Source: Escherichia coli (GTDB lineage: Bacteria; Pseudomonadota; Gammaproteobacteria; Enterobacterales; Enterobacteriaceae). Taken from it: 64,000 nucleotides of DNA. Below, one piece after another: positions 36,292-59,705 of this stretch. Positions within the stretch are counted from its first letter, which is position 1, and the number at the start of each line of letters is the position of its first letter. The position numbers and the translations under genes are program-made. The notes below the pieces were generated by a model. The model saw only the letters and a program-made list of their open reading frames with translations. It was not told the DNA's origin and searched no databases. The DNA lies in the NCBI GenBank assembly GCA_005400705.1, contig GCA_005400705.1_4079.1; one strand, 5' to 3'.

Positions 36292-36320
36292 GCATCAACG
36301 TTAATCATAGGGTACAGATT

Positions 36321-39728: not shown

Positions 39729-40213
39729 AGTTTAGTTTAGATGCTGCCTTTAAATTTGTTCACAAGATAGAAACAATATACAGTACATTATGTGCAATAC
39801 AATCAGTATCATCTGAGTTTGATGTTGGTGAAAAATATCAGGTATGGAATAATACATTTCTAAACAAAGAACGTTGCTCTACGGGGTTTAATATTTTAAC
39901 ATTTAACCCCAGCAATTGTTACCCAGAGAAGCATGAACGTTATCCGAATGACGACATGTGGTTTGATTACACAAAAGATGGTGATATGTCATCCCTTGTA
40001 GTTCCTGATGATTTTAATGCCGAAGATTTAACGAAAGAGTGGTGGTTTCAACAGAATTTAGTACACGATGATATTGATTTATTTTTTTATGTAGTATTTA
40101 AAATGCTTTACCACAACAATATATTAAAAGATAGTGTGTTTTTTTCATGTCTATATATTGATGATTTGTACAATGAAATCCAAATCAACATGCCCAGAAC
40201 GCCTGTATCGTAA
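39707..40213 (+). CDS. Family C protein
   Basis: 168 aa; core KEWWFQQNLVHDD. Confidence 0.65.
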   Translation: MQYMYDLEFSLDAAFKFVHKIETIYSTLCAIQSVSSEFDVGEKYQVWNNTFLNKERCSTGFNILTFNPSNCYPEKHERYPNDDMWFDYTKDGDMSSLVVPDDFNAEDLTKEWWFQQNLVHDDIDLFFYVVFKMLYHNNILKDSVFFSCLYIDDLYNEIQINMPRTPVS

Positions 40214-40239
40214 GATATGGGCTTTTTTCGTTTTGGTAT

Positions 40240-40268
40240 TGACAAAGAAGTGCAAAGCTGTTATCATG
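40240..40268 (+). promoter_or_regulatory. Internal sigma70-like promoter (tattgacaaag class)
   Basis: gTATTGACAAAGaagtgcaaagctgtTATCAT; preceded by gggcttttttcg. Confidence 0.5.
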
Positions 40269-40295
40269 TGTAATCATTTTAAAGGAGAACATATA

Positions 40296-40817
40296 GTGAG
40301 TTTCATAATCCCAAGTACATACGAAGATGCATCAAGTGCAGTGTATAAGGTTCATTATATTTTTAATTTAATTATTAGTGCATCAAAAAATAAAATGTAT
40401 GCACCTCTTGTGAAATATGATAAAAATGAGGAAATTTTTGTTAGCACAGAACAAACGATTTTTCCATATTTCAAAGAAGATAGATTGTGGTTCATGCATT
40501 CAGTCGCATTACAAAGATATAATATAACAAGGTCCAATGAGCATGATTATTTGGATATACAATTAGATCAACCCGATATTGGAGAGGATGAATATTTTCA
40601 GTACAGCACAGTACACCACCATGAAGATATCTTTGCTGCTATGCTTATTGCTAAATTGAACACCGTTGATTTGGAGCAGCACAAATACAATAATAAATCA
40701 TGTAAGATCATAATCCCTGCATTCATTGCTCTTTATGATTACATTGTGCATAACAAAAAAGATGATACATATGCTTTCAATGAAGAGTATTTGAATTTTT
40801 TTAAGGAGAACATATGA
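40296..40817 (+). CDS. Family C protein (probable GTG start)
   Basis: Track ORF 40134-40817; ATG 40266 lies in the -10; in-frame GTG 40296 follows SD aaaggag; core DEYFQYSTVHHHE. Confidence 0.5.
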   Translation: MSFIIPSTYEDASSAVYKVHYIFNLIISASKNKMYAPLVKYDKNEEIFVSTEQTIFPYFKEDRLWFMHSVALQRYNITRSNEHDYLDIQLDQPDIGEDEYFQYSTVHHHEDIFAAMLIAKLNTVDLEQHKYNNKSCKIIIPAFIALYDYIVHNKKDDTYAFNEEYLNFFKENI

Positions 40818-41341
40818 GCAGTGAAGTGCTGAAATCAATGACATTCAATGAAATTGGTGCATTTAAAGATAAGATCATTGATTGCATTGAATACATGATT
40901 TGTAGTAATATCGAAAGTATTGAGATATTTAACAAGACAAATCGCTCTTACCATATGATGTACATTGCAAACAATAATGGTATCATTCCATTTATTTCGG
41001 ATAGTACAATATGGTACGCATGTGATACGAAAAAAACCACAATAGGTTTACATTCATTTGAGACACATTATGATCTAATTATTCCTGAACATTGTATGCA
41101 AGAAGAAGAATATTTTCAAATGCAATGTATACATTCACCATTAGTGTTGTTTAGTTTATATATTATACCTTATATCACCAAATGTGTTCATGAGAATAAA
41201 GCTCCGTGGAATCATGAATTTGTATCGTTGAAGTTATTGTATAATGTATTAGTAGAATATTATGATTACAGGCACAATGGTACAATCAGTGATGTATGGG
41301 ATTTTGAATCGCTAAGGGTGAAAACATACACAGGTGAATGA
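40814..41341 (+). CDS. Family C protein
   Basis: 175 aa; core EEEYFQMQCIHS. Confidence 0.65.
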   Translation: MSSEVLKSMTFNEIGAFKDKIIDCIEYMICSNIESIEIFNKTNRSYHMMYIANNNGIIPFISDSTIWYACDTKKTTIGLHSFETHYDLIIPEHCMQEEEYFQMQCIHSPLVLFSLYIIPYITKCVHENKAPWNHEFVSLKLLYNVLVEYYDYRHNGTISDVWDFESLRVKTYTGE

Positions 41342-41957
41342 TATGACCAGAATTAAAATGTATGATTTGATGCAGTACAGTAAAATTGCCATTCCAGTGC
41401 TTAATAAAGTGCTGGATGCATTCATTGCCAAATACCCTGAGAATTCAGTGTTATGTATTCCATTTAGTGTTCCAGATAAAGATGATATATTCCAAGTGAA
41501 TGTCAGTACACGTGGTATTACATTGCAGCAGAAATACATGGATACGGAATATTATGGAATAAAGTTGGATTCAGTACAGGGTTCAAAATCAGCCTATGAT
41601 TTTTTTGTTCCTAATAATATAGAGTCATGGGAAACAAACATTTCAAAGAAAGATGAAAATGATGTTCCTATTAGTGGTGTGTTCAACAATAAAGTTTTTT
41701 ATTATTACGAAACCGACAAATTCCCTGAAGAGTTATATTACAATTCAGAAATGAATGAAGATGTAGATGCATTCATGTTTCAATTATCGTTAGTACATGA
41801 TATCATTGATGTTCAAGAGTTAAGAGCAGAAATCAATTTAGCTAAAGAGTTATCGGACATGCTGCCACCGTTTAGTATGCTTTTTTGTGAAGGAGGTTAT
41901 TTTTCAAAAGAAGTGTTTGAACATTTCGTAGATGTTGTAAAAGGGTTGGATATATAG
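41334..41957 (+). CDS. Family C protein
   Basis: 207 aa; core DAFMFQLSLVHD. Confidence 0.65.
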   Translation: MNDMTRIKMYDLMQYSKIAIPVLNKVLDAFIAKYPENSVLCIPFSVPDKDDIFQVNVSTRGITLQQKYMDTEYYGIKLDSVQGSKSAYDFFVPNNIESWETNISKKDENDVPISGVFNNKVFYYYETDKFPEELYYNSEMNEDVDAFMFQLSLVHDIIDVQELRAEINLAKELSDMLPPFSMLFCEGGYFSKEVFEHFVDVVKGLDI

Positions 41958-41958
41958 T

Positions 41959-42153
41959 ATGCTTACAGTTGATGTTAAACAAAAATACCGTAAGTTTGAT
42001 TGGTTCACCGACAGTTTCCAGCTTGAATTATTACATTTGAATATCTGTGAAACATTATGTGCAGAAACACAAGATGAATTTGATGATAGAGTGCTTCACA
42101 TCGTAGTTCTTTCTTGCTTTAAACATTTTGGTTATTTTTTCGGACAGAATTGA
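41959..42153 (+). CDS. Hypothetical small protein (possible truncated family C)
   Basis: 64 aa; DSFQLELLHLN. Confidence 0.4.
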   Translation: MLTVDVKQKYRKFDWFTDSFQLELLHLNICETLCAETQDEFDDRVLHIVVLSCFKHFGYFFGQN

Positions 42154-42161
42154 GGTAAAAA

Positions 42162-42680
42162 ATGCATCAACACAAGCATCATTCATATGATTTTGCAATT
42201 AACATTATGAAGTTCATTCGAGCGTTGGAGGATGGGAAGCTTAGTCATAAGTACACCAAAGTGGGTGACAATTGGTTCAGAAATGATGATGATGAGTTCA
42301 GAAGTCATAAGATTGTTTACAGCAATAATTACAGTGCCAATTACCTACAAGATGTAGTGATGTGTTTTGAATACGTGTTACAGTTCAGGGGTTCCATCAG
42401 TCCTGAGCTAAGAGAACACATGTACATTCGATACCTACCAATGCTTAAGGATGAGAAATCAATATTCAATTCAGTACACCACAGAGTACGAGAGAGAACA
42501 TTCAGAGATATTTTGGAAGATGAAGCTGCCTATTTTCAGCAATCATTGATTGATGCTCCTGATGTGTTACAGATGCAGAATTTGTATAATGTATTAGATG
42601 CGAACATCGATACGGATATCTTTTTTTCCTTAAGTGATTATGAAACATTTTTGGAAGATTTAAAGGAAATAGGATTATGA
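42162..42680 (+). CDS. Family C protein
   Basis: 172 aa; core EAAYFQQSLIDA. Confidence 0.65.
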   Translation: MHQHKHHSYDFAINIMKFIRALEDGKLSHKYTKVGDNWFRNDDDEFRSHKIVYSNNYSANYLQDVVMCFEYVLQFRGSISPELREHMYIRYLPMLKDEKSIFNSVHHRVRERTFRDILEDEAAYFQQSLIDAPDVLQMQNLYNVLDANIDTDIFFSLSDYETFLEDLKEIGL

Positions 42681-43021
42681 GTAGATTTTCAGTTTATATA
42701 GTAAACGTCAGTAAAGATGGTAGTTTAATTGAATTTGATGTAGTTGATAACAATGATAATTCATATGGTATTAAGGTACAGGACAATGATGTACAGTTCA
42801 GTACAAGGACAAATTTTGAGAATCCAGTCCAAGTTCCGAATTTCATAGAAGATGAAGCTGCACGATTCCAATACGAAACGGCCTTTGATAATTTAGCGAT
42901 GCATATTATTATGCAAGAAAGTTTAGTTCAATTGCTTCAGGTATTCAGACAAAATATATATGTACATGAAGTGTCGATTAATGGCATTCAAAGTTCCGTT
43001 TTGTTCGGTACAAATATGTAA
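42677..43021 (+). CDS. Family C protein
   Basis: 114 aa; core EAARFQYETAFD. Confidence 0.6.
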   Translation: MSRFSVYIVNVSKDGSLIEFDVVDNNDNSYGIKVQDNDVQFSTRTNFENPVQVPNFIEDEAARFQYETAFDNLAMHIIMQESLVQLLQVFRQNIYVHEVSINGIQSSVLFGTNM

Positions 43022-43031
43022 GGAAAGTACA

Positions 43032-43586
43032 ATGAGTTCAATGAGTTTATTAGATACATTAGAAAAAGACAGAAGTGCCATTAAGAGATTAAAAAATCTT
43101 GTCCAGAGCATTGCGAACAACGCTGAGAAGTTCAGTGACAATCTTAGTATAGGTGATATAACCAGTACAGGAATAAAATCCCTGAAGTCAGATTTATTAA
43201 TTCATAAGGAAGATAAATTATTATTTGTATTGAGTTCAGATTTAATGGTTGCAAGTAATGGTTTCAATTCGATATCAACACAAGATGGTAGCACAGGATT
43301 ATATCTATCACAGGGTGTCCAGACGAACGAACAGAAGTGTTTTAGTTCAGGAGTACAGAATCCCTTTAAGTTCAGTACAGAACAAGCTACAGAGCTTTTA
43401 GAGGCTTCAGAAGAGATGTTATTTCAGTACAAAACGGTTCATACAGATTTTGAATTACGATGCATGTACGCTGTTAAGCATTATGTTCAGGAGTTCGAGG
43501 ATTTAAGTTATCTTTTAGTTCGAACGAATACAAAGAACATTGGTGCATTAGAAGATTACATTTCAAAAGTTGTTAAAGGTTGTTAA
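43032..43586 (+). CDS. Family C protein
   Basis: Track ORF 42960-43586 trimmed to ATG 43032 after SD aaggaaag; core EEMLFQYKTVHTD. Confidence 0.6.
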   Translation: MSSMSLLDTLEKDRSAIKRLKNLVQSIANNAEKFSDNLSIGDITSTGIKSLKSDLLIHKEDKLLFVLSSDLMVASNGFNSISTQDGSTGLYLSQGVQTNEQKCFSSGVQNPFKFSTEQATELLEASEEMLFQYKTVHTDFELRCMYAVKHYVQEFEDLSYLLVRTNTKNIGALEDYISKVVKGC

Positions 43587-43749
43587 AGGGTGCTGATGAA
43601 AGAGTTATTTGAAGAACAGTTCGATACATATGTGGATAATATTCTTTATTCTAGCCGTGCTAGTCAACGAGGAAATCGTGCTTACAACATAGATTACCTA
43701 TTAACGGTGCTGAGTTCACAGTACACCTACGCTGTACAGAGGACATATT

Positions 43750-43953
43750 ATGAATAATTTTAGAGATGTTGCAAAGGAGAAGTTCAAGTGCAGTTTAGAT
43801 TACGGTTTAAATGATTTTCTTACATGCACAATGTACAGGAATGATGATTATGAGCAATCCGTAATTTCGTTGCACAGATATTTCGAAATAATTTACGCAA
43901 GATATCTTAGAAGGTTAGATGGGATAGGGGATTGGAATTATGATTACGTTTGA
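43750..43953 (+). CDS. Hypothetical small protein
   Basis: 67 aa ORF. Confidence 0.45.
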   Translation: MNNFRDVAKEKFKCSLDYGLNDFLTCTMYRNDDYEQSVISLHRYFEIIYARYLRRLDGIGDWNYDYV

Positions 43954-44164
43954 AGAGCCGGAAGTGGTATATTGCTTTAGTGTGAAAGGTTTTGAATACA
44001 TGATGGATTCGATTTTGAAGGATACATATTTGGTTCAGATTGCAGTTACAGATAATACAGATAATGCATTACAGCGTGTAATGAATATGTACGAGAAGAC
44101 AAGTCGAAGGCTTTGTGCAATGAAAAGGATTGAAGAAATCAAGGTTTCTAGGCTGAATAAATAG
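43940..44164 (+). CDS. Hypothetical small protein
   Basis: 74 aa ORF. Confidence 0.45.
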   Translation: MITFEEPEVVYCFSVKGFEYMMDSILKDTYLVQIAVTDNTDNALQRVMNMYEKTSRRLCAMKRIEEIKVSRLNK

Positions 44165-44364
44165 AGACGTTTCATTTTGACAGGCCGCAGGGGGGTCAAA
44201 AAAATTTCCGCTGAAAAACATGCTAAGGTATATGTTTAATATAAAGTTTTATATTGTGTTTTTCAGAGTACAGTTTATGTTTCCTGAAACAAAAAAAAAA
44301 TACCCCGCCACCGAACGTGCTCCTTATATTGGAGTTTACCTTATTAATTATAGTAGAGATTAAG

Positions 44365-44742
44365 ATGGAAATAAAATATAATGAATTTTGTGCAAGGACA
44401 TGGATGTACACTGGTGAGTTAGTTACGCACTCTAACTTATACAAGGGTGATTTAAACTACGCTAGGGACAAGATTTTAAAGTACTGGAATGCTGACTTTT
44501 ATTTGATGGATTTTAGTACTGGGTTTAGGGGTAAAGCAACCGAGATGTTGGACTATACAGTACTTGATGATGCTGCACTGTTTCAGGAGGCATTAGTATT
44601 TGATAAGAAGTACATCTGTACATTAGAAGAGATGATTGAATTACAGCGTAGAATTAAATGTATTCACAGGGAATGTATAGATATCTGGTGCAGTACTGGT
44701 GAAGTTGATTTTTGTAATCATTTCAATCTAGGGGAAGTGTGA
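44365..44742 (+). CDS. Family C protein
   Basis: Track ORF 44254-44742 trimmed to ATG 44365 (MEIKYNEF); core DAALFQEALVFDKKYICT. Confidence 0.6.
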   Translation: MEIKYNEFCARTWMYTGELVTHSNLYKGDLNYARDKILKYWNADFYLMDFSTGFRGKATEMLDYTVLDDAALFQEALVFDKKYICTLEEMIELQRRIKCIHRECIDIWCSTGEVDFCNHFNLGEV

Positions 44743-45098
44743 TGGAATTTGATTTTTTAATATCAGTACATTCTTTTAAGCACAGTTTTCAGTACTTTTG
44801 TAATTTAAACAAAGGTGATTTAATGCACAGTGCGAATGAGTATATTCATTTTACTGATGGTAAATTCTCATTTATTGATTACAGTTCATTAGATTTTCCA
44901 TACACTGATATGCCGGACTATACATTGATGGATGCTGGTGAACTATTTCAAGCTGCATTAGTATTTGACAAGAAGTACATCTGTACATTTGAAGAAGTAA
45001 TTACTATACAAAATGAAATGAAGGTGTATGCATCGTTGAATAAACCTAATGAATGTATTAATCAAGAATACAAATTCAATATAGGAATTCCAAAATGA
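44739..45098 (+). CDS. Family C protein
   Basis: 119 aa; core GELFQAALVFDKKYICT. Confidence 0.7.
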   Translation: MMEFDFLISVHSFKHSFQYFCNLNKGDLMHSANEYIHFTDGKFSFIDYSSLDFPYTDMPDYTLMDAGELFQAALVFDKKYICTFEEVITIQNEMKVYASLNKPNECINQEYKFNIGIPK

Positions 45099-45454
45099 CA
45101 TATGATTATTCTATGTACTATTATAAGTTACCTAAAGGATGGGACTTGTGCTGTAATCTTATTAAGGGAGACTCGGAACATGAGTTGAGTTTATATATGC
45201 ACTACAAAGATTCTTGTTTTAAATTTATTCATGTATTACATGATGGCTATGACTATGAATCTGAGAGTCTTATAGATTATACAGTACTGGACGATGGTGA
45301 ACTATTTCAGGAAGCATTAGTGTTTGATAAGAATAAGTACTCCTGTACATTTGAAGAAATGGTTTCTTTGCAAAATGAAATGAAGAGATTTGAAAAAGAA
45401 AACGTATTTAATCCATCCCCATCAAGAACGAATAATTATTATTTCAATATATGA
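45095..45454 (+). CDS. Family C protein
   Basis: 119 aa; core GELFQEALVFDKNKYSCT. Confidence 0.7.
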   Translation: MTYDYSMYYYKLPKGWDLCCNLIKGDSEHELSLYMHYKDSCFKFIHVLHDGYDYESESLIDYTVLDDGELFQEALVFDKNKYSCTFEEMVSLQNEMKRFEKENVFNPSPSRTNNYYFNI

Positions 45455-45463
45455 GATTATAAA

Positions 45464-45958
45464 ATGACATTACAGAGTTCATTGGAAAAAGCAAAGAAGA
45501 TTCATGAGTACATGAATATGGCAAAAGAAGGTTCAGTTTACGGTGTTTTCAAAGACACAAGTACTCAATATTATGTGCCGGATAACCTCCTTTATAATGA
45601 CTGCTCAGATACAGAAACGTGCGTACTGGATACAGAAACGTGCATACTAGATACCGACCCTAATGATTATGAATGTTTCATTGATATGCATAATGAGTAC
45701 ATGGTCTATATTAATGATGCAGATATTACCATATACAGTACTGACTGCGATTCCGATGACATTATAATTCCGAGTGAAGTACTAGAAGGTCAGTGGGATA
45801 GTGAAGAGTATTACTTCCAACAAAGTACTGTTTACGATGATGAAGTACTTGAAGTATTAGTTATTATGTGGTACTTTAAAAGTATTGGTTCTGGGAACTT
45901 CTATTTCGATTACAGATACGTAACGAAAACTGTAGATAACGGTATTAACAGGGGTTGA
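45464..45958 (+). CDS. Family C protein
   Basis: 164 aa; core EEYYFQQSTVYDDEVLEVLVIMWYFK. Confidence 0.7.
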   Translation: MTLQSSLEKAKKIHEYMNMAKEGSVYGVFKDTSTQYYVPDNLLYNDCSDTETCVLDTETCILDTDPNDYECFIDMHNEYMVYINDADITIYSTDCDSDDIIIPSEVLEGQWDSEEYYFQQSTVYDDEVLEVLVIMWYFKSIGSGNFYFDYRYVTKTVDNGINRG

Positions 45959-45959
45959 A

Positions 45960-46430
45960 ATGAGTTTAGAAAGAGCATTAGAGATTGCGAAGTTAATTGA
46001 TTTATGCAGCAAAGAAATTGTATCAAATTGTCTCAATGGATATCTATTCAAGGAAGGTAAATCATATTGTCGAATGATATACGATGACAGTAGTGAATAT
46101 ATCCATATGTATGAAGAAAACTTAGATGATTCTGACATAGTACTCACAGGATGTGATGTTAATTTGGAAGATAATTACATGTACTTCTGCCGTGATGCTG
46201 ATATTTTAATCCAAGATTCATTAATTCAAACAGGTGCACCAGAGGTATATCTTCCGTATTCAGTACTGGATAATAACTGGGGTAGTGAAGATTACTATTT
46301 CCAGCAGAGTACTATATATAATGAAGATATACTTGACAAACTTGTTATTTCTTGGTACTTTCATAACACGGATTATAGTAGCTTCTACATAGACTTGGAT
46401 CTACTAAGAGTACTTAAAGAGGATATATGA
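45960..46430 (+). CDS. Family C protein
   Basis: 156 aa; core EDYYFQQSTIYNEDILDKLVISWYF. Confidence 0.7.
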   Translation: MSLERALEIAKLIDLCSKEIVSNCLNGYLFKEGKSYCRMIYDDSSEYIHMYEENLDDSDIVLTGCDVNLEDNYMYFCRDADILIQDSLIQTGAPEVYLPYSVLDNNWGSEDYYFQQSTIYNEDILDKLVISWYFHNTDYSSFYIDLDLLRVLKEDI

Positions 46431-46867
46431 GTTTAGAAAAAGCACTAGAACTAGCCAACAAAATACATCAGTACCATGATAAAATAAAAAGTGGGTTCTA
46501 TGCTGATAAAGTACATGCATATGGGAATGAATATTACCTCACTGGAGTAAAGAGATACTCTAATGATATTTTACTTATGGGTCATGATAAAGACAATAAT
46601 ATACAGTACTCTTCATGTAGTCAATATACTAGTTTTATGGTATATATTCCTGGTACTAAGATTACTTTTGACACATCAAATACACCTGTTGACTTCGGAG
46701 TACTTGATGGCCCGTGGGGTACTGAAGAGTATTACTTCCAACAGAGTCTCATTTTTAACCAAGAAATGCTTGATTCCTTGGTTGTGTTGTGGTACTTTAA
46801 GGAATTGAATTTTGAACCATTCTTTCTTGACTGGGGATCATGTGAGTATTTAATTTCAGGGGAATAA
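46427..46867 (+). CDS. Family C protein
   Basis: 146 aa; core EEYYFQQSLIFNQEMLDSLVVLWYFK. Confidence 0.7.
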   Translation: MSLEKALELANKIHQYHDKIKSGFYADKVHAYGNEYYLTGVKRYSNDILLMGHDKDNNIQYSSCSQYTSFMVYIPGTKITFDTSNTPVDFGVLDGPWGTEEYYFQQSLIFNQEMLDSLVVLWYFKELNFEPFFLDWGSCEYLISGE

Positions 46868-46869
46868 TA

Positions 46870-47358
46870 ATGTCATTACAAAGTGCATTGAAAGAAGCAA
46901 AGAAAATTCATGAGTACATGATTATGGTACAGGAAGGTTCAGTACCAGGTGTATACAAAACATCAGATACGGAATTCTTCGTTAAGGATAGAGATGATTA
47001 TGACGAATCAGAGGTATGTGCAGAAACATTAGTACTGCACACTGATACTGGTGACAGTGATAACTGTGAATATCATATGTACAACCAGTACATTAGTTAT
47101 TGCCGTAATGAAGATATTACCATCTACAACACAGATAGTGATGCTGATGACACTATCATTCCTTATTCAGTACTGGAAGGTCAGTGGGATAGTGAAGAAT
47201 ATTACTTCCAGAATAGTACTATCTACAATGAAGAAGAACTGGATGTTATTGTGATTATGTGGTATTTCAAAAGTATTGACTCCAGTAGTTTCTATTTTGA
47301 TTATGAATATGTAGAGAATACAGTAGGAGAAGGTAATGTCATTACAAAGTGCTCTTGA
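46870..47358 (+). CDS. Family C protein
   Basis: 162 aa; core EEYYFQNSTIYNEEELDVIVIMWYFK. Confidence 0.7.
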   Translation: MSLQSALKEAKKIHEYMIMVQEGSVPGVYKTSDTEFFVKDRDDYDESEVCAETLVLHTDTGDSDNCEYHMYNQYISYCRNEDITIYNTDSDADDTIIPYSVLEGQWDSEEYYFQNSTIYNEEELDVIVIMWYFKSIDSSSFYFDYEYVENTVGEGNVITKCS

Positions 47359-48407: not shown

Positions 48408-48853
48408 GTTACGAAAGTGCAATCAAGAAAGCAAATGATATTCTAAAAGTTGTTAAGTTCTTCAAAGAAAATCCTGAATACTTAGCTGATGAAAACCATG
48501 ATCACGATGAGAGATTGAGACGAAAAATTGTTTCTTTATTTGACACTAATGCAGATAATTATAGTCTAATTGAGTTAGCATACGATTATATTTCATTGAA
48601 CCGAAACGGAAATTTAGTTAATATAGAAAGACATGAGAGTGAAGAATCTTTTAAAATTTCAGACATTTTATCCCTGAGTACTGAAGAAGGGTACTTCCAG
48701 GGTAGTACTGTTTATGAACAAGGAACACTTGACAATCTATGCACATTCAGTGTAATATATCAGAAATCAGTACTGGATGTATTTTATCTTGACACTGCTG
48801 AACTGGATACACTAACCAATTTTGTTACTACTGAAGAGGCCACATTCGAGTGA
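48404..48853 (+). CDS. Family C protein
   Basis: 149 aa; core EEGYFQGSTVYE. Confidence 0.65.
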   Translation: MSYESAIKKANDILKVVKFFKENPEYLADENHDHDERLRRKIVSLFDTNADNYSLIELAYDYISLNRNGNLVNIERHESEESFKISDILSLSTEEGYFQGSTVYEQGTLDNLCTFSVIYQKSVLDVFYLDTAELDTLTNFVTTEEATFE

Positions 48854-49386
48854 TGAAAGTTAACATCAATGACTTTGATGCATTACAAGATTTATCAAAA
48901 AAGATTCGTATCATCGTACCAGTACTAAAAAAATGCAGTACTGGTTTAATTGATCCTAGTACTGTTGTTAATGAGAAGTACAATTTTCATCGTGTATTAC
49001 AGGGTACAGGTGCATTTCAGAAGTGTGATGTACGTGAGAAACACGTAATTGATACATCATTGTTTTCTATTGGTGCACCTGTGTCGAATAATTCTATTTT
49101 CTTGGATAACGCAGGAAATATTCAACAATTAACATTTAAGAAAAGGAAAAAGAACAATAACATTGGTGTGTACGCGATGAAGTGGGGGCAACCTGATTTG
49201 AAGCGTGAAATTCACATCCCTAAGTACAATTACAATGCATTTGACGAACAGTGTTTTCAACTATCGTGTACTGACCCTGACTATGCAATCATTCAGTTCT
49301 ATATGGAATTGCAGATAGCATTTAATAGTAATTTGTATATTAACTTATTGGCGATGAACATCGATGAAGTATTCAAAAACATTTAA
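48850..49386 (+). CDS. Family C-like protein
   Basis: 178 aa; core DEQCFQLSCTD. Confidence 0.55.
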   Translation: MMKVNINDFDALQDLSKKIRIIVPVLKKCSTGLIDPSTVVNEKYNFHRVLQGTGAFQKCDVREKHVIDTSLFSIGAPVSNNSIFLDNAGNIQQLTFKKRKKNNNIGVYAMKWGQPDLKREIHIPKYNYNAFDEQCFQLSCTDPDYAIIQFYMELQIAFNSNLYINLLAMNIDEVFKNI

Positions 49387-49582
49387 TCGAATTGAATACA
49401 TGAGAACTGTGAGTGCAGTGTGGGATATATGGTTCACTACTAAACCAAAAATGGATTACCATGACTTTAAGCTATTGTTCTTCATTGGCTCTAACAAACA
49501 GGATGTTGCAATGAAGGGTTATATTCAGCACTTACAGGAACTAATACAGAAGAGGGTTAATGAAAATAATAGACCAAGATGA
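49364..49582 (+). CDS. Family B small protein (embedded in family C array)
   Basis: 72 aa; core IGSNKQDVAM. Confidence 0.55.
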   Translation: MKYSKTFNRIEYMRTVSAVWDIWFTTKPKMDYHDFKLLFFIGSNKQDVAMKGYIQHLQELIQKRVNENNRPR

Positions 49583-49751
49583 TATTGCTAAACTATTCAA
49601 TATATATTCTACTAGAATGATGCAAACAGACTCATATAGTACTGAATTCAAAGAGTTGAAAGTACTGATGTACTTGGGAACCCAATATCAGGAACAAGTT
49701 ATTTTGGAATATATTAATTCGTTGAAGAAGGATATCCGTTATGTACGATGA
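49560..49751 (+). CDS. Family B small protein (embedded in family C array)
   Basis: 63 aa; core LGTQYQEQVI. Confidence 0.6.
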   Translation: MKIIDQDDIAKLFNIYSTRMMQTDSYSTEFKELKVLMYLGTQYQEQVILEYINSLKKDIRYVR

Positions 49752-50301
49752 TTTAGATCTTGCGTTTGAACGTATGGTAATTTTAATGCAATGTGCAGAA
49801 ATGCATGAAACAATCCGTCGCACCAAAGGGATTGAATATACAAGTAAACTATTCTCATACGAAAGTCGTCGAGGGATGGATCATTTTTACTGCACTGATT
49901 GTTCAAAGTTTTCAGTACTGAAATATTATCATCCTACTGTTTCCAATAATAGTTTAATATCCACATATGATGGTGATCTGTTTAGTGTAATGTATGACAC
50001 ATTACATCCATCAATTTCAATCTATAAAGATTGCGATAGTAGTTTATCGTATATAATTGAAGATTACTTATCTCCTAATACTGAAGAGAATATTTTTCAG
50101 AACAGTGTGTTGCATGATGAATTAAGTATAAAATGCATCTATATGTTCAATAAGTTAAAAGAGTACGCCGATAATAATTACTTCATTGATGATTTAGCGG
50201 TATTGTCTGTTTCCGTTTTTAATACAAATGATATTGATATGAAATACTATAATGAGATTTGTAAAGTACATCATATGTATAAGGAACTATTATGTCAATA
50301 A
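49741..50301 (+). CDS. Family C protein
   Basis: 186 aa; core EENIFQNSVLHD. Confidence 0.65.
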   Translation: MYDDLDLAFERMVILMQCAEMHETIRRTKGIEYTSKLFSYESRRGMDHFYCTDCSKFSVLKYYHPTVSNNSLISTYDGDLFSVMYDTLHPSISIYKDCDSSLSYIIEDYLSPNTEENIFQNSVLHDELSIKCIYMFNKLKEYADNNYFIDDLAVLSVSVFNTNDIDMKYYNEICKVHHMYKELLCQ

Positions 50302-50894
50302 ATGCAAATAAATGTTGTAGTGCAAATGTGCATTTGTTTTTTAAGAAATTAGCAAATGATATTATATATATGCAGGAAATGATTTATCACAAACGAGCGG
50401 ATTTAGAAAAAGCATTAGTACAGTTCTCATTTATGCTTGATGGTGATATATTTCTAGAGAGTGATGCATTGCGAATAGTATTAGACAAAAATGCTAAAAG
50501 ATTTTTATTTCATATAGATAATAAATTATGTTCCTCCGTATGTCGTACTTTTTATAATCGTGATTCGGACTTATATCAATTCCTTTATTCCAAAGGTGCA
50601 GTAGAAGCATCATATGGTGATGGTTATGCCCTAGGAAAGAGTATTCCATTTATGAAATCATTTAAAATAGAACACATCAGTACTGATGAAGATGCAATGT
50701 TCACAAATGATATAACTATGGGACGTGAAGATGCAATGCGATATATTACAAATTCTATGCATACATTCTTTCAACGAACAGAATTTGATAATGTATATAT
50801 ATCAAATGTAAATATTTTCAATGACCTGTGTCAGTACTTGAGAAGTGTTTGTGACTTCGATGAAAGTTATTGTAAGCTATACACTGAGGTATAA
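50292..50894 (+). CDS. Hypothetical protein (degenerate family C core)
   Basis: 200 aa; DEDAMFTNDITMG at the expected position. Confidence 0.5.
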   Translation: MSINANKCCSANVHLFFKKLANDIIYMQEMIYHKRADLEKALVQFSFMLDGDIFLESDALRIVLDKNAKRFLFHIDNKLCSSVCRTFYNRDSDLYQFLYSKGAVEASYGDGYALGKSIPFMKSFKIEHISTDEDAMFTNDITMGREDAMRYITNSMHTFFQRTEFDNVYISNVNIFNDLCQYLRSVCDFDESYCKLYTEV

Positions 50895-50899
50895 AACAA

Positions 50900-51262
50900 A
50901 TGAACACATTAAGTATTACATACTATACAACTAAAAAATTAGTTACTTGTTTAATATCTTTGAAGACAAACCATGATGATATGTTTGATATGGCTGCATA
51001 TGAATTAGAATTATCAGAAGATGGCTTCAAGAGCTATGAATTATATAGCTATGTCCGTGAAGATGTAATTGACACTACACTAATGCAAGAGGATGAGTTA
51101 TTCCAAGAAAGTTTAGTATGGGATAATAAGTACGATTGTAACTTTGATTTCTTATGTTTAATCCAGAAAGAAATGAAAAGAATCTTTGATAATTATCCAA
51201 TCAAACGTTTCAGTACTGCACCTGAGCAATATAAAAGGATTATATTCACCTATGAAGATTGA
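50900..51262 (+). CDS. Family C protein
   Basis: 120 aa; core DELFQESLVWDNKYDCNF. Confidence 0.65.
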   Translation: MNTLSITYYTTKKLVTCLISLKTNHDDMFDMAAYELELSEDGFKSYELYSYVREDVIDTTLMQEDELFQESLVWDNKYDCNFDFLCLIQKEMKRIFDNYPIKRFSTAPEQYKRIIFTYED

Positions 51263-51629
51263 ATTTGAAGTTATTACATATAGTATAGGTGATGGTATCC
51301 GTTGCTATGTACAAGCAAGGCATATGGTTCCTGATGATAAACTGTCACCCAAAAGCTTCTGTATCACACAAGATCTCTTAGATATCAACGGAGAGTACAA
51401 GTACATATATTATCTTACTAAGGGTTATTGTAGTACACGTGGTTTTAATATTGTAGCTGTTTCTAGAGATGAAATTGATGATTTAACTGAGTACGGGGAA
51501 GAAGAGATGTTCCAGTACAGTACTGTTTTTAATGAACTGGATGTGTTTCTGTTACGAAAAATACAACACATTATGCAAAAATGTTTGCATCATAAGAGAG
51601 GTATTGTATGCGACGTGAATCTGAATTAG
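51252..51629 (+). CDS. Family C protein
   Basis: Track ORF 51186-51629 trimmed to ATG 51252 (MKIEFEV); core EEMFQYSTVFNE. Confidence 0.6.
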   Translation: MKIEFEVITYSIGDGIRCYVQARHMVPDDKLSPKSFCITQDLLDINGEYKYIYYLTKGYCSTRGFNIVAVSRDEIDDLTEYGEEEMFQYSTVFNELDVFLLRKIQHIMQKCLHHKRGIVCDVNLN

Positions 51630-51949
51630 TTAAAGTAATGTACGCTACTCATATTAAACTACTACTTGTTAAATTTGATTATAATAAAAAACATAATGAT
51701 TTCTATACTTTAATTCGTGATGAAAATACATTCTCCTTGCGATGCAACAATATACCCTTGAAGATAAATGATTTTACTTCACTTGACGAGGGGGAATTAT
51801 TTCAAGAATCATTAGTTTTTAATAGTAATATAAAAATTGATATAGAAGTTATTAAAAAATACCAGATTCTATTGAACAAAATTATGAATTGTTATCCATG
51901 TGAAATAGGTGGTCATATGCAGTTCAAATCAAAAATGTATGAATTATGA
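51608..51949 (+). CDS. Family C protein
   Basis: 113 aa; core GELFQESLVFNS. Confidence 0.65.
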   Translation: MRRESELVKVMYATHIKLLLVKFDYNKKHNDFYTLIRDENTFSLRCNNIPLKINDFTSLDEGELFQESLVFNSNIKIDIEVIKKYQILLNKIMNCYPCEIGGHMQFKSKMYEL

Positions 51950-52493
51950 GGTTTATATGTTAGATAAAAAAATGAACTCTGGAACCCAATATAATCATCT
52001 TAAGTTGGATACATTCGAATCAGCTATCAGTACAGCACAAGATATAATTGATATTATCAAGTTCATTAAAGAAGATAAGTTCAAATGTTTGAAAATACTA
52101 AATCGTTCAATGTACCGTGATAAAAATATTCATGTATCAGTACGTAGACCGAAAGATCAAGAAAGTGGGAGAGATTTCTATAACAACAGTGAGCAGTTCG
52201 AATGTGAATATGATCCAGAATTTAGAGGTGGTTTCATGTGTTACTGTATGAAGGATACCTCACACATTGAGATACGTTCATCGAAAGGTGGCATACGTAC
52301 ATTAGAGTTTATTGATATAGTTTTAAATCAGGAATACTACTTTCAACTATCATTATTGTTTCCTGCATACGATTTAGGAGTTCTATTCATGTATAAGTAC
52401 TTTTATGAGCACTGGAATGAAGACTTCTATCTGGACTTAGAAGATTACCAATTAGTTTGGAAAGAAATGGTAAAACTTCGCAACCCATCTTGA
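51909..52493 (+). CDS. Family C protein
   Basis: 194 aa; core QEYYFQLSLLFP. Confidence 0.6.
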   Translation: MVICSSNQKCMNYEVYMLDKKMNSGTQYNHLKLDTFESAISTAQDIIDIIKFIKEDKFKCLKILNRSMYRDKNIHVSVRRPKDQESGRDFYNNSEQFECEYDPEFRGGFMCYCMKDTSHIEIRSSKGGIRTLEFIDIVLNQEYYFQLSLLFPAYDLGVLFMYKYFYEHWNEDFYLDLEDYQLVWKEMVKLRNPS

Positions 52494-52519
52494 CACCCTC
52501 CGATTCTTTGTGATATAAT
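52490..52519 (+). promoter_or_regulatory. Internal sigma70-like promoter within an inverted repeat
   Basis: TTGACA 52490-52495, 18 nt, TATAAT 52514-52519; tgtgatataa (52508-52517) pairs with ttatatcaca (52541-52550). Confidence 0.45.
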
Positions 52520-52552
52520 CTCTTTATATTAATTGTAAAGGGTTATATCACA

Positions 52553-53035
52553 ATGTCCAAAGACCTATCATTTAGCAATGCACAAAAAATCGCACAAAAT
52601 ATCATTAAACTTCATAAGTTCCTTTTAACAGTTAAAGAGAATATAATTCTCCCACGATGCACACTTTATGCGTACAAAAATTATTTGTCAATGAATAGCA
52701 ATTTGTTGCATACTACAGATGAGAATTTCTGTGGTATTCGTGTACTTGACGATGCACCAACAGGGGATTTTATCTCATATTGTTTCCATACATCTGATAG
52801 TTTTAAGTACTATCATCCTAGATTTAATGATGATGAATATGAATATGACACATTTAATGTTAGATCAGAAGAAGAATTCTTCCAGTACAGTACTTTGTAC
52901 AATGAGAGAATCGTGTTTAGTTCTACAATTTTTACAGTACTTAAAGATGAACTCAATGACGCAGATGATAGATTCTATATGGATTTAAACTTCGTAGATG
53001 AAATCATTGAGTACATGGAGAAAAATGGTCTATGA
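52553..53035 (+). CDS. Family C protein
   Basis: 160 aa; core EEEFFQYSTLYNE. Confidence 0.65.
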   Translation: MSKDLSFSNAQKIAQNIIKLHKFLLTVKENIILPRCTLYAYKNYLSMNSNLLHTTDENFCGIRVLDDAPTGDFISYCFHTSDSFKYYHPRFNDDEYEYDTFNVRSEEEFFQYSTLYNERIVFSSTIFTVLKDELNDADDRFYMDLNFVDEIIEYMEKNGL

Positions 53036-53514
53036 TTACAACAGAATATGATTACGATGGTGTTTTAGAATTTGCATCTAACATTCATCGCATTGCAAAG
53101 GAGTTCAGAAGTCCCCAACCTTTCGGTGGAATGCCTTTTGGTGGAATGTTCCAATATGACCAATTCAGTTCAACCAAAGGAAGACTTGCCTTTAAAAATA
53201 ATAAGGGCAATCAAGTATATGCTGAGTTCTTTGACGATAATGACTTTCACTACAGAGCTGAATATATTTCATATTGTCAAGGGTCTGATTTGAAGATTAA
53301 CATTGATACATTTAGAGATTCAGTGTTTATCCCTTATAGTGAGTTAGTTTTCATGACAGAAGAAATGTACTTCCAAGGGTCTTGTATTCATGATGCAAAA
53401 GTACTTAATGCTATATTACTTTATGGTGCACTACTTCATCATTACAAATACAAACAACGATTCTTTATAGATTTAGTTGTATACCATCAATGCGTGGATT
53501 ATTTGAATGCATAA
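53032..53514 (+). CDS. Family C protein
   Basis: 160 aa; core EEMYFQGSCIHD. Confidence 0.65.
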   Translation: MITTEYDYDGVLEFASNIHRIAKEFRSPQPFGGMPFGGMFQYDQFSSTKGRLAFKNNKGNQVYAEFFDDNDFHYRAEYISYCQGSDLKINIDTFRDSVFIPYSELVFMTEEMYFQGSCIHDAKVLNAILLYGALLHHYKYKQRFFIDLVVYHQCVDYLNA

Positions 53515-53869
53515 TACAACAACAATTCAGTACATGACGGATGGCAATGATTGCTTTGCTTCAAGATATGAATTCATCAAGAACCATTTCGTAACCTATA
53601 TCCCTGAATATAATCAGTTTTATCTACAGATTTACCAAAATGATTCATATATGAATGAGATATATTCTGAAATAAAAATCCCTGATTATAGTACTTTATC
53701 AGAAGAGGAATTGTTTCAGGAGAGCACTGTCAATACTGAAGATGTGTACGAACTAATGGAATACCAGAAGGTACTTAAATATTTCCATGAAGTTCAGGAT
53801 ATACAAATGGATAGTGTTAAAACGTGGAATTATAACACATACGAGGTAAATTATGTTCGAAATGATTAA
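53507..53869 (+). CDS. Family C protein
   Basis: 120 aa; core EELFQESTVNTE. Confidence 0.65.
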   Translation: MHNTTTIQYMTDGNDCFASRYEFIKNHFVTYIPEYNQFYLQIYQNDSYMNEIYSEIKIPDYSTLSEEELFQESTVNTEDVYELMEYQKVLKYFHEVQDIQMDSVKTWNYNTYEVNYVRND

Positions 53870-54266
53870 AATTATGCAACGATGCATTGTTGACCAACAT
53901 GGAATATATGGATATAGTTTAAGTGCAGCTATTGACAAAAACAAAACAACCTATGTAAGATATAATGCAGTACTTGGATTTGATATATTCATTGATGCTA
54001 ACAATAAAATCAAACAAGCTAAGGATGTGTCTATAATGACCCCTGACGAGTTATTTCAGTACAGCTTAGTTCTGCCCACCTGTATTGATTTACAACGCCT
54101 AGGAGCTATACAGAAGGTTTTACGCGAACATAAAGTACAACCAAATAAAATTACACACATCCCAGAAACATTCTACAAACCAATAGAAGTAGAAACACCT
54201 GATTATATGTTAAGTGATGATGAGTTCTACAAGAAACACTTCCCTGGTAAAGTTTGGAGAGAATAA
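53853..54266 (+). CDS. Family C protein
   Basis: 137 aa; core DELFQYSLVLP. Confidence 0.65.
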   Translation: MFEMIKIMQRCIVDQHGIYGYSLSAAIDKNKTTYVRYNAVLGFDIFIDANNKIKQAKDVSIMTPDELFQYSLVLPTCIDLQRLGAIQKVLREHKVQPNKITHIPETFYKPIEVETPDYMLSDDEFYKKHFPGKVWRE

Positions 54267-54748
54267 TGAACAGAAAGTACAGAGAAACTATGAAGTTCGC
54301 TAAGGAGTGTTTAGAGACAGTTGATTTCATTTTCGATAACAAAGACTCATTGGGTCGCCACTTCGTAATTACAAAGAAAGAAGATAAGAGATACAAATGT
54401 CAACGATTAGGATACAGTATTGAGTTCTCCTTAATGATTGACGGAATGATAAACTCCTTATATGAATGTGGTAAGACTGATTACATTTCATTTAGATCAT
54501 GGAGTGAAGGTATCATGTTCTTGAGAACAAATGGAGTTATATATCCTTTTATTGATGATTTATCAGAAGAAAGTTACTTTCAAAATACTTTAATTTACAC
54601 AGAAAAAGAACTCAAGATGCTATTCATTATGTCGTACTTTAAAAAGTACTGCAAATTTAAATCATTAGCTTTTGAGATTTCTGCAATGAAAGTATTCATT
54701 AAAAATGTAAAAGAATTAAAGAGGATTTACGATGTACATAGAAAATGA
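54254..54748 (+). CDS. Family C protein
   Basis: 164 aa; core EESYFQNTLIYTE. Confidence 0.65.
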   Translation: MERIMNRKYRETMKFAKECLETVDFIFDNKDSLGRHFVITKKEDKRYKCQRLGYSIEFSLMIDGMINSLYECGKTDYISFRSWSEGIMFLRTNGVIYPFIDDLSEESYFQNTLIYTEKELKMLFIMSYFKKYCKFKSLAFEISAMKVFIKNVKELKRIYDVHRK

Positions 54749-55274
54749 TAATGTAAAATGCATTACTGACATTTGTATAAAATTAATGAAAATTTTCATT
54801 AACCCAAAATACAAGACTCGTTCTTTACGTCATAACATTGATGATCATTGTGTAATTACTATTCTAGGTAGTATGCTTGATGTAAAATACGATGGTAAAT
54901 TGTTATTCGGTGTCCGAGAAGAGAAGATAGATGATGCATTCTTTTCCTGTAAAGATAAATTTGAACCTTCTGATTATAAAGTAATTATTCGTGATGATAG
55001 CATCTACATTAGTAGTGATTATTCAAATTACTTCGATAAAATATACACTGAAAACGTTGACTACCATTATGAAATGATAGATTTACCAGTAACAGACATT
55101 GATATGGAGAGAATCAAATTTTCATTATCAGATAATGAGTACTTAGGTATACAAACATATTATTCACTACAAGGAAAGATTCCACCTGCTATGTATATAA
55201 GGATTGAGATTGGTAATGTATTCAATGATAAGGTTATATCAATTGCTGATAAAATATTGAGGGTTGAATTATGA
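54732..55274 (+). CDS. Hypothetical protein (degenerate family C)
   Basis: 180 aa ORF in array, no FQ core. Confidence 0.5.
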   Translation: MYIENDNVKCITDICIKLMKIFINPKYKTRSLRHNIDDHCVITILGSMLDVKYDGKLLFGVREEKIDDAFFSCKDKFEPSDYKVIIRDDSIYISSDYSNYFDKIYTENVDYHYEMIDLPVTDIDMERIKFSLSDNEYLGIQTYYSLQGKIPPAMYIRIEIGNVFNDKVISIADKILRVEL

Positions 55275-55834
55275 ATATCAATGATTACCAATTTCATAGG
55301 CTTGAATTTCGTCATTGTGTTGCATTTGCAAAAACATTGATGTGCATCATTGACACTCTTTCATCCAAACAATTTCGTAAGGATAATGATTTATTTCTGA
55401 AAAAAGGTCGTGTAACATCAACTGATATCGGTATTGAACTATTTGTTGATATCAGTGTTGATACCGGAGACAGTACAAGGGTTGGTTGTATAGGTCATAT
55501 TGGTACACATTGCTTCACATGGAATCCAAATACAAGTCAAGTGCGAATTGATTATAGAAATTCACGTTGGGTTGATCTTAGTACTGAATCAGATTTAGAA
55601 TCAGCTATGTTCCAGCTAAGTTTAATTCATAATCCTAATGAACTTCTTTACATTATTACTTTCAGTTATCTGTTACAAAACTACGATAATCCATCAGGGT
55701 TTTTCATGGAATCGGATATAGAAGAAATTATGGCAGTGTTTCCTAGTTTAAAGGATATTCTGGAAGAAAAAGATTTCTATGAAGACTTCAGAGATTTATA
55801 CGACATGCACTTGGAGTTATTTAAGAATGGATAA
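55271..55834 (+). CDS. Family C protein
   Basis: 187 aa; core ESAMFQLSLIHN. Confidence 0.65.
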   Translation: MNINDYQFHRLEFRHCVAFAKTLMCIIDTLSSKQFRKDNDLFLKKGRVTSTDIGIELFVDISVDTGDSTRVGCIGHIGTHCFTWNPNTSQVRIDYRNSRWVDLSTESDLESAMFQLSLIHNPNELLYIITFSYLLQNYDNPSGFFMESDIEEIMAVFPSLKDILEEKDFYEDFRDLYDMHLELFKNG

Positions 55835-56345
55835 AGATGATATTCTAATTAGACTAATTAATAGTTTAATAAAGTTCTCAAATAATGATGTCGATACATA
55901 CAAAGTAGGGGATATTGAATTTAAATCATTTGGTATGTACGGTGAGGATAAAACATATTATGCGTCAATGAAATTTCAAGATTTTCACGAGATGTTAATA
56001 TCGTTATCATATGAAGATGTTGATCCAAGATGGAGTTCCAGTATTTCACTATCGAGAATGGTAATTCGTAGTAAGCATCGTTATATTTCGTCAAAGAATA
56101 CTCCTAACTTGATTAATATTGTGTTGAATGAAAATACAAATCCCCTATCTAAACATGATATCGTACCGTTAACCGATGAAGTTCTTTTTCAATTGAGTAC
56201 CATTTGTGATGAAGATGTGATATCATGTATGAAAATTTATGAGAAGGTTGGGAGTGATATTCCCATGAACTATTACCTAACTATAGATGGAACGTACCTT
56301 CGAGATGAGGTTCTAGCGTACATTGACAGTGTTTTACCAAAATAA
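55827..56345 (+). CDS. Family C protein
   Basis: Track ORF 55779-56345 trimmed to ATG 55827 (MDKDDILIRL); core DEVLFQLSTICDE. Confidence 0.6.
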   Translation: MDKDDILIRLINSLIKFSNNDVDTYKVGDIEFKSFGMYGEDKTYYASMKFQDFHEMLISLSYEDVDPRWSSSISLSRMVIRSKHRYISSKNTPNLINIVLNENTNPLSKHDIVPLTDEVLFQLSTICDEDVISCMKIYEKVGSDIPMNYYLTIDGTYLRDEVLAYIDSVLPK

Positions 56346-56368
56346 AGACCCGTATGGGTCTTTTTGTG
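56346..56368 (+). terminator. Rho-independent terminator inside the family C array
   Basis: agaccc-gtat-gggtct then ttttgtgttt. Confidence 0.6.
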
Positions 56369-56375
56369 TTTATGG

Positions 56376-56404
56376 CTTTACAAGAGCATTCAGGTGTGTT
56401 ATAC
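56376..56404 (+). promoter_or_regulatory. Internal sigma70-like promoter
   Basis: TTTACA 56376-56381, 17 nt, TATACT 56399-56404; SD ggagg before ATG 56433. Confidence 0.4.
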
Positions 56405-56432
56405 TTGATTTTAAATAGAGTTGGAGGAATCT

Positions 56433-59644: not shown

Positions 59645-59658
59645 ATTCGTACCAGGGG

Positions 59659-59687: not shown

Positions 59688-59705
59688 GTCCTAAAGGAGA
59701 ATTTT

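Follow-up and report, generated by a model that had tools for sequence, protein, structure and literature searches.

Predicted promoter and stem-loop cassettes in the rare long gaps of a paralogous gene array of a Rak2-like jumbo coliphage

The locus studied here raises the question of whether a long array of co-directional, paralogous genes is transcribed as one operon or as several units, and which signals in the DNA would divide it. It lies in a stretch of 64,000 nucleotides (nt), referred to below as the window, of contig GCA_005400705.1_4079.1 in assembly GCA_005400705.1, which is filed under Escherichia coli. The original prediction, made for positions 40190-56404 from the letters alone, had held that the array is punctuated by internal promoters, one terminator and a 200-bp non-coding gap and that it is probably several transcription units, which may allow differential expression of subsets. 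Based on the results of this study, the array very probably consists of several transcription units as judged from its sequence, and it is likely that functional promoter/terminator cassettes divide it.

A megablast search with positions 40000-56500 retrieved 36 phage records, all from Escherichia or Salmonella jumbo phages and all Asteriusvirus by classification, with the exception of WPEC3, which is unclassified. The top match was phage 121Q (94.5% identity, 97% of the query covered). Judged by this similarity, the window is Asteriusvirus DNA, i.e., that of a 121Q/PBECO4-like jumbo coliphage (Rak2-like). Beyond 5.4 kb nearly every gene of the window is on the + strand, and the GC skew is positive from about 10 kb onward. 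The array within it is the following.

35687-63687, + strand, co-directional array of 66 genes with at least 34 paralogues of a family, here called family C, that carry the motif EExYFQxST

The 65 junctions of this chain (35.7-63.7 kb) were distributed unevenly: 48 were overlaps, 11 were gaps of 0-15 nt, none measured 16-29 nt, and six were gaps of 59-200 nt. Five of the six long gaps carried a TGn-extended promoter of the sigma-70 type and three of those five also a terminator hairpin, while the sixth was the 200-nt gap of the original prediction. The features found in the long gaps are listed below, with promoter scores as matches to the 12 positions of the two consensus hexamers and with predicted folding free energies (dG) and z-scores against shuffled sequences.

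36263-36291, + strand, predicted promoter P0, TTGACG-17-TATAGT with TGn, 10/12, in the 64-nt gap 36257-36320
40201-40222, + strand, predicted terminator hairpin T1, 9 bp with loop GUAA, then UUUUUUCGUUUU with a U6 run, dG -13.9, z -3.9
40239-40267, + strand, predicted promoter P1, TTGACA-17-TATCAT with TGn, 11/12, of the TATTGACAAAG class
44165-44364, no strand assigned, non-coding gap of 200 nt between genes 43940-44164 and 44365-44742
52490-52519, + strand, predicted promoter P2, TTGACA-18-TATAAT with TGn, a perfect 12/12
52508-52553, + strand, predicted P2 hairpin, 20-bp helix whose outer part is an 11-nt perfect inverted repeat (52508-52518 and 52543-52553)
56344-56363, + strand, predicted terminator hairpin T2, AAAGACCC-GUAU-GGGUCUUU, then UUGUGUUU with a U5 run, dG -11.0, z -3.4
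56377-56405, + strand, predicted promoter P3, TTTACA-17-TATACT with TGn, 10/12
59649-59687, + strand, predicted composite T3/P4, terminator hairpin 59649-59671 and TGn promoter 59659-59687, 9/12

The promoters, terminator and gap of the original prediction were all present, within 1-2 nt of where it had placed them. Its promoter at 40240-40268 is P1, its terminator and promoter near 56346-56404 are T2 with its T-run and P3, and the gap has the ends that were given, with the quoted 23-mer at 44177-44199. The remark that a second promoter has its -10 in an inverted repeat was borne out at P2, where the 11-nt repeat extends to the 20-bp hairpin. A single terminator, however, was too few, as T1 also lies inside the range and directly upstream of P1. 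The punctuation itself stood within 40190-56404 but was incomplete, because modules were also found outside that range at P0, which belongs to the same system, and at T3/P4.

The cassettes are closely fitted to the neighbouring genes. The stop of gene 39707-40213 overlaps T1, and P1 begins 17 nt downstream of the hairpin. P1 is predicted to drive a unit starting at GTG 40296; its TATTGACA(A/T)AG class is a small one, with 5-6 sites in the window. T2 directly follows the stop of gene 55779-56345, and P3 is predicted to drive a unit starting at ATG 56433. At the third site, in the gap 59645-59705, the loop and 3' arm of T3 (dG -12.9, then U5) contain the -35 hexamer TTGACT of P4. P2 has no terminator ahead of it, and the stop TGA of gene 51909-52493 lies within its -35 hexamer. 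P0-P3 are all of the sigma-70 extended -10 type (hexamers 16-18 nt apart, TGn), and P4 also has TGn.

The arrangement could be explained as follows. The array would be part of a region transcribed by the host RNA polymerase, probably early, in which cassettes in the only long gaps divide a translationally packed gene chain into about five units. Each cassette would be a TGn-extended sigma-70 promoter combined with a stem-loop, the latter being situated upstream of the -35 as an intrinsic terminator (T1/P1 and T2/P3), over the -35 (T3/P4) or over the -10 (P2). The terminators would stop read-through from upstream and the promoters would restart transcription, so that transcript levels would be reset along the approximately 28 kb instead of decaying.

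The obvious alternative is one long read-through operon, in which the signals would have arisen by chance from AT-rich sequence and the gaps would be neutral remnants. Nearly all genes overlap, and the loosest counts are in accordance with such an operon: generic promoter-like matches were no commoner than in shuffled sequences (108 vs. 121.7, i.e., below the shuffle mean), loose matches in the flanking regions were likewise not enriched, and terminator-like matches at 39-58 kb numbered 3 against 5.1 expected. The strong TGn class, on the other hand, was clearly enriched. TTGACA-N14-TGnTATnnT with at most one mismatch occurred 17 times in the window, where 1.36 were expected, and + strand sites of at least 10/12 with TGn at 29.7-64 kb numbered six against 1.48 in simulations, a fourfold excess. 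Moreover, four of these six (36263, 40239, 52490 and 56377) lie in gaps that are truly intergenic and amount to about 2% of the sequence (p ~1e-5, binomial estimate); the strong site at 63779 is inside an open reading frame (ORF) running off the window and is not intergenic. The three terminator hairpins, each followed by a U-run, had z-scores of -2.8 to -3.9, a range that extends to -5.6 when the P2 hairpin is included. ARNOLD terminators have been annotated independently in G17 at all three orthologous sites (40201, 56344 and 59649), and the depositors of UE-S1 and G17 annotated a terminator at the spot orthologous to T1.

Conservation bears on the same alternative. The orthologous regions of ten relatives were fetched and their gaps aligned. 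Columns of the -35, -10 and TG elements varied in 5 of 42 cases compared with 62 of 190 for other intergenic columns (Fisher p = 0.004, indels ignored), and the hexamers were kept in 9-11 relatives while spacers and flanks varied. The hexamer changes that did occur stayed within the consensus (TATCAT to TACAAT, TATACT to TATAAT, TTGACA to TTGACC or TTGACT); for example, the -10 of P3 is TATAAT in four relatives. At P1, the genomes of Ecwhy_1, WPEC3 and ph0011 had a quite different spacer and lacked 7 nt upstream, yet they retained TTGACA (TTGACT in ph0011) and TACAAT 17 nt apart after TG. In the promoter scan P1 was present in 9 of 9 relatives as two alleles, both of the form TTGACA (or TTGACT)-17-TAnnAT plus TG. 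P2 was found in 11 of 11 relatives and also on one metagenome contig, and P3 in 9 of 10, being lost by a 61-nt deletion in SD-15_S21. The T1 stem was invariant in nine relatives and T2 was present in all ten. T3/P4 behaved as a clean 50-nt indel, the whole module being missing in Ecwhy_1, ph0011 and CMSTMSU. Ecwhy_1, WPEC3 and ph0011 had extra promoters upstream of the orthologue of gene 42162, which the window lacks. The divergent phage A4 had a terminator with a TTGACA-17-TAGAAT module and, in addition, a terminator whose loop holds the TTGACT of a TGn promoter. The promoter and terminator signals are therefore taken as real and under selection, with their activity being predicted from sequence, and the single read-through operon is very unlikely. 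That the array comprises several transcription units, as originally proposed, is made probable by the placement in gaps, the conservation and the partly independent annotation of G17 and UE-S1.

Besides the loose counts above, several points weigh against a division by functional cassettes. T2 has only five G-C-containing core pairs, and P4 is weak at 9/12. A literature search for Asteriusvirus transcriptomics found no RNA data, so the activities of the cassettes are predictions. Finally, Asteriusviruses encode their own RpoD-like sigma factor (PMC11895373), which makes transcription by host sigma-70, and early, an assumption.

Two other strong promoter-like sites in the array lie inside coding sequence: 63011-63039 (+ strand, TTGACA-17-TATTAT with TGn) in gene 62786-63199, and, on the minus strand, 50270-50298 (TTGACA-17-TATGAT, 11/12, no TGn), where genes 49741-50301 and 50292-50894 meet.

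If the units exist, it has to be asked whether they would be expressed differently. Since all the promoters belong to one class, the sigma-70 extended -10 type, they should fire together, and differential timing is unsupported for the same reason. The suggestion that the array allows differential expression of subsets accordingly finds no support, and it is more likely that the promoters restore or reset transcript levels than that they give separate programmes. A different timing would follow if the promoters were read by the phage RpoD-like sigma factor, with middle expression and a temporal class unlike that of the promoter field at 10-29 kb. Sigma-70-family factors are encoded both by Asteriusviruses (PMC11895373) and by phage CBB (PMC5259590), and the dominant class at 10-29 kb, AGTACTTGCA-N17-GTATAAT in at least 24 copies, is unlike P2 and P3. 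However, P1, P2 and P3 all have TGn and agree with the E. coli consensus in 10 to 12 of its 12 positions, and the P1 class is shared with promoters inside the 10-29 kb field. Reading by the phage factor is considered unlikely.

The P2 hairpin is the only hint of selective expression in the array. Its 5' arm is formed by the TGn and -10 of P2, and its 3' arm holds the Shine-Dalgarno (SD) sequence AAAGGG (52537-52542) and the A of ATG 52553. Read-through RNA (52495-52575) folded with -22.1 kcal/mol compared with -9.0 +/- 2.3 for shuffles (z -5.6). The predicted start of P2, seven bases past the -10 at about 52526, is inside the hairpin, and RNA from 52526, which lacks the 5' arm, was unstructured (dG -4.6, z +0.8). 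Read-through RNA would fold the SD and start of gene 52553-53035 into the 20-bp helix; RNA initiated at P2 would start inside the helix and leave the site free, and the gene would then be translated only from its own promoter. Such an arrangement is known from genes e, soc, 49 and I-TevI of phage T4, in which the ribosome-binding site is occluded in long transcripts but accessible in those that start at a promoter within the helix (PMC3014915). As in T4 gene e, P2 lies in the DNA encoding the 5' strand of the helix and the 3' strand holds the SD and AUG, so the predicted fold has the occlusion architecture of that gene.

The helix is also retained in the divergent phage A4. There, a 19-bp helix covers the SD and the whole AUG (dG -21.9, z -6.6), although the segment differs from that of the window at many positions and the ATG is shifted by 3 nt. 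When the two sequences were anchored on the -10, three outer pairs were changed on both sides (U-A to G-C, U-A to C-G and G-C to A-U), and the inner stem was rebuilt from different sequence but still pairs. In the search for further divergent relatives, IMG/VR gave only 121Q and the metagenomes two near-identical contigs. Covariation in support of the P2 helix is suggestive, but not strong, on these comparisons.

Three points speak against a translational gate. In a MAFFT alignment only one pair showed a double change, a score that shuffles reached in 171 of 500 cases; the formal pair count does not reach significance, since A4 is aligned out of register and the other ten of the eleven sequences hardly differ from one another. 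The covariation comes from one divergent genome, A4. Moreover, the internal promoter of T4 is late (gp55) and its control temporal, whereas P2 is of the same sigma-70 class as P0, P1 and P3 and not of a later temporal class than the promoters that read through it. The T4 logic, with a silent early read-through and an active late promoter, is therefore not directly transferable, and the benefit at P2 would be insulation or dosage and not timing.

This likeness to the upstream promoters, which weakens the rationale for gating, equally favours another explanation, namely that the palindrome is the operator of a dimeric phage repressor, an RNase III site or an attenuator without U-run. A stem of 20 bp is long enough for RNase III, and the palindrome, 46 nt in length, has its centre in the start region of a 12/12 promoter. 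Stem-loops over the -10 have been described as terminators or attenuators in the PeSL cassettes of T4-type phages (PMC2839356). However, the helix is not followed by a U-run, and despite the 3-nt shift of the start its 3' arm coincides exactly with the SD and start codon in A4, as it does in the window. The inner stem of A4, with its other sequence, fits selection on pairing but not on a sequence recognised by a protein. These explanations of the palindrome are somewhat unlikely, and a helix that makes translation of gene 52553-53035 depend on initiation at P2 can be given a chance slightly short of even.

PeSLs, or promoter-early stem-loops, were defined in T4-type phages (Arbiol et al. 2010, PMC2839356; Comeau et al. 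2014, PMC4122927) as small intergenic cassettes that join a stable stem-loop to a strong sigma-70-like promoter. Their stem-loops occur in five subclasses, upstream of the -35, over the -35 or the -10, or between them (PMC2839356). They are bounded by an upstream stop and by a downstream SD and ATG, are concentrated among orphan genes and serve as points of homologous exchange (PMC2839356, PMC4122927). The array resembles them in that four of its six long gaps hold a promoter with a stem-loop (T1/P1, the P2 hairpin, T2/P3 and T3/P4), in three of the five subclasses. Its cassettes likewise lie between an upstream stop and a downstream SD and ATG, flank fast-evolving genes of unknown function, vary in presence between close relatives and coincide with replacement junctions. 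The upstream region is T-rich at P1 and P3, where it contains the U-run of the terminator; P2, whose -35 is entered directly from coding sequence, lacks the AT-rich region. The cassettes differ from PeSLs in belonging to an Asteriusvirus and not to a T4-type phage, and in being sparse (one per 3-16 kb) and mutually dissimilar, whereas PeSLs are a dense repeated motif; a dense and mutually similar version is present at 10-29 kb of the same window. Furthermore, they are known from sequence alone, while PeSLs were defined with activity and mini-circles.

The mosaic structure of the window was compared with the positions of the cassettes. Apart from two patches resembling Ecwhy_1/WPEC3 (42.3-43.8 and 52.6-54.9 kb) and some further small blocks, the window is 121Q-like at 99-100%. 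The switch from 121Q-like to Ecwhy_1-like sequence at P2 falls within 52505-52590, inside an island identical in all genomes, and a change of donor at P1 falls within 40199-40342. The gene after P2 is 100% identical to that of vB_Ec-M-J and 57.8% identical to the 121Q orthologue, and the promoter ahead of it is the same in both lineages. The cassettes are conserved islands between fast-diverging genes, and they coincide with recombination junctions and indels. Against this, only 2-3 of about 10 mosaic boundaries are at cassettes, and the rest are 35-100 nt inside genes. A role of the cassettes in recombination is possible, with doubt slightly prevailing. The wider proposal that PeSL-type mobile cassettes of a Rak2-like phage insulate units, give islands of homology for swaps of paralogue blocks and, at P2, use the gate for insulation is a tentative one and on balance rather doubtful.

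A full-text literature search for PeSL together with "jumbo" returned only a citation in a review. In phage CBB, clusters of RpoD-like promoters among short hypothetical genes have been read as early (PMC5259590), and in PA5oct TTGAC/TATAATA promoters were found around transcription starts inferred from RNA-seq (PMC7318152). CBB, PA5oct and G17 belong to the same Rak2-like clade and have the same TTGACA/TATAAT kind of promoter, and the terminators of G17 are at orthologous positions. Their reports, however, give genome-wide motif lists without the bimodality of gaps and overlaps, the composite cassettes, the P2 helix or the link to mosaicism. The arrangement is known from T4-like phages and mostly ordinary, but had not been described before in this phage group. 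It offers a transcription map that can be tested, covering about 28 kb of a jumbo coliphage in which almost all genes are of unknown function; the map predicts five to six units, with the 5' and 3' ends to be expected, and a single candidate for translational gating. It also suggests that the T4-type mechanism of promoter/stem-loop plasticity exists in Rak2-like jumbo phages, which would help to explain the expansion and shuffling of the paralogue array. No new kind of regulatory element is implied, and nothing yet follows for the role of the family C proteins.

The gap 44165-44364 has a length of exactly 200 nt if ATG 44365 is taken as the start of the following gene, which is how PBECO4, G17 and Ecwhy_1 are annotated; the mechanical ORF list puts this start earlier, at a TTG. 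The gap contains a weak promoter-like site (44177-44205), a G-run (44190-44195) and an A-run (44291-44300). Its identity was 89-97.5% in 31 of 33 Asteriusvirus records. In ph0011 and SD-1_S14 it is mostly missing, and in UE-S1 it is absent, the two genes being 45 nt apart. It is thus dispensable, and it diverges about as fast as the flanking genes.

Such a gap could be a control point, in the form of a C-rich spacer favouring Rho, of a phase-variable promoter with a G-run, or of a short decaying ORF. It is a 200-nt untranslated stretch in an otherwise coupled chain, it is kept in most relatives, and the stretch 44275-44352 is C-rich and G-poor (C/G 1.84, 98.8th percentile for the region), which could, as a speculation, favour Rho. 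However, folding gave no signal on either strand (z 0.08 for + and 0.00 for -, best sub-hairpin z -1.84), scans of the whole window for Rfam (gathering score) and tRNA/tmRNA had no match in the gap or elsewhere, and the dispensability and ordinary divergence noted above count against a control function in general.

As for a promoter, TTGACA...GTCAA in the gap pairs as a stem of 7 bp that encloses a -35-like hexamer, and AAAAAT follows at a spacing of 17 nt (10/12). The site was not supported as a promoter because of the poor -10, the lack of TGn and the variable G-run in the spacer; the -35 is degraded to TTCACA or TTTACA in two relatives, Ecwhy_1 and WPEC3. The G-run, which ranges from G6 to G10 among relatives, lies inside the spacer of this site, and the spacing would therefore vary from 17 to 21 nt across isolates. 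A phase-variable promoter of this kind in a lytic phage is extremely improbable. The homopolymers differ (G6-G10, A6-A10) among genomes that are otherwise 90-97% identical, which could possibly be caused either by hypermutable tracts or by artefacts of the sequencing platform. A likeness to a T4 MotA box and late promoter (TATAAATA), noticed by eye, was dropped as partial matches in AT-rich DNA.

Similarly, an ORF of 47 aa (44220-44363) closes 1 nt ahead of the following ATG, and the records of four relatives annotate it. It was discarded as a candidate for a conserved gene because it lacks an SD, is broken by a premature stop at its 11th codon in Ecwhy_1 and WPEC3, and is frame-shifted at the A-run in 121Q and G17. 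A blastx search of the gap against all ORFs of the window and of ten relatives matched only the orthologous gap in shifting frames, so the gap is not a recognisable remnant of a family gene. Altogether, a control point is quite unlikely, and no evidence of a transcription start or stop was found there that would let the gap serve as punctuation, as the original prediction had it. The cassette model does not account for the gap, whose left end is at most a decayed cassette.

Differences between relatives were also seen next to the gap. In 121Q and G17, two extra small genes (121Q gp366-367, about 590 bp) lie between the orthologues of 44365-44742 and 44739-45098, and this indel (window 44742 / 121Q L002 6256-6845) adjoins the 200-bp gap. 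In UE-S1 the orthologous gene at this place has 243 aa compared with 125.

Many genes of the array belong to family C, for which an iterated profile search found at least 34 members at 35.7-63.7 kb and two further marginal matches; FQ is invariant within the motif EExYFQxST. No Pfam family was matched, the PHROGs matched were of unknown function only, and the Protein Data Bank (PDB) held no relative by sequence. The structure predicted by AlphaFold was confident (pLDDT 86.7, pTM 0.83), and the model had no match among PDB folds (best E 1.6). In BFVD it matched uncharacterised proteins only, the named ones being from 121Q, SP27 and RaK2, with weaker matches in GAP32 and in Serratia phage BF; judged from the predicted model and these matches, the fold would occur only in Rak2-like phages. 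The motif in the proteins of 45464-63687 (e.g., residues 100-110 of the 47336-47788 product) is superficially like the TEV/3C-type protease site ENLYFQ|S/G, but the residue after Q varies. A second group of 31 small paralogues (64-94 aa), mostly overlapping, is found at 29751-37306 and 49364-49751, and two of its members at 49364-49751 thus sit inside the family C array.

The window holds 71 copies of the palindromic octamer CAGTACTG, where 0.85 would be expected and no shuffle had more than 4; AGTACT is present 278 times. The flanks of the octamer lean to TTT-CAGTACTG-AAA. It is densest at 0.5-30.3 kb and missing at 30.3-44.7 kb, and in the array it occurs at 44691, 45282, 45736, 46261, 47168, 47662, 48768, 48936, 49913, 50678, 51211 and 51518. 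Some copies lie in promoter spacers and others within genes, for instance in the family C motif FQxST, whose Ser-Thr is encoded by AGT-ACT in 10 of 12 copies and by AGC-ACT and AGT-ACC in the other two. A literature search for the octamer gave nothing relevant. The excess is unusual for a phage, and the octamer could be a site of protein binding, modification or recombination.

At 10044-28856, at least 24 copies of a cassette of about 59 nt, AAAAAGTACTTGCA-N17-GTATAATGTTTTACAT, form a dense PeSL-like field with about one copy per gene; downstream of many copies there is a G/C hairpin (GGGGGAAnnGGTTCTCCC) and then a small gene with its SD. A second module, GGGATTGACTCCGGTCAGTCCCTTTGCTATTAT with the -35 inside a hairpin and then CCCACCGGGTGCATAAATGTATCTA, is found at 19331-19453, 22717-22836, 25718-25837 and 28163-28282, and its architecture is that of T3/P4 (59649) and of one site in A4. 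At 10435-10594, iteron-like 8-nt repeats (GGATGGCT, GGACGGCT and AAACGGCT) follow each other with 8-nt phasing where the GC skew changes sign (at about 10 kb). On the minus strand, 516-5332 holds four tandem paralogues of about 380 aa, each preceded by a conserved element of about 61 nt with a TATAAT-like box near the SD.

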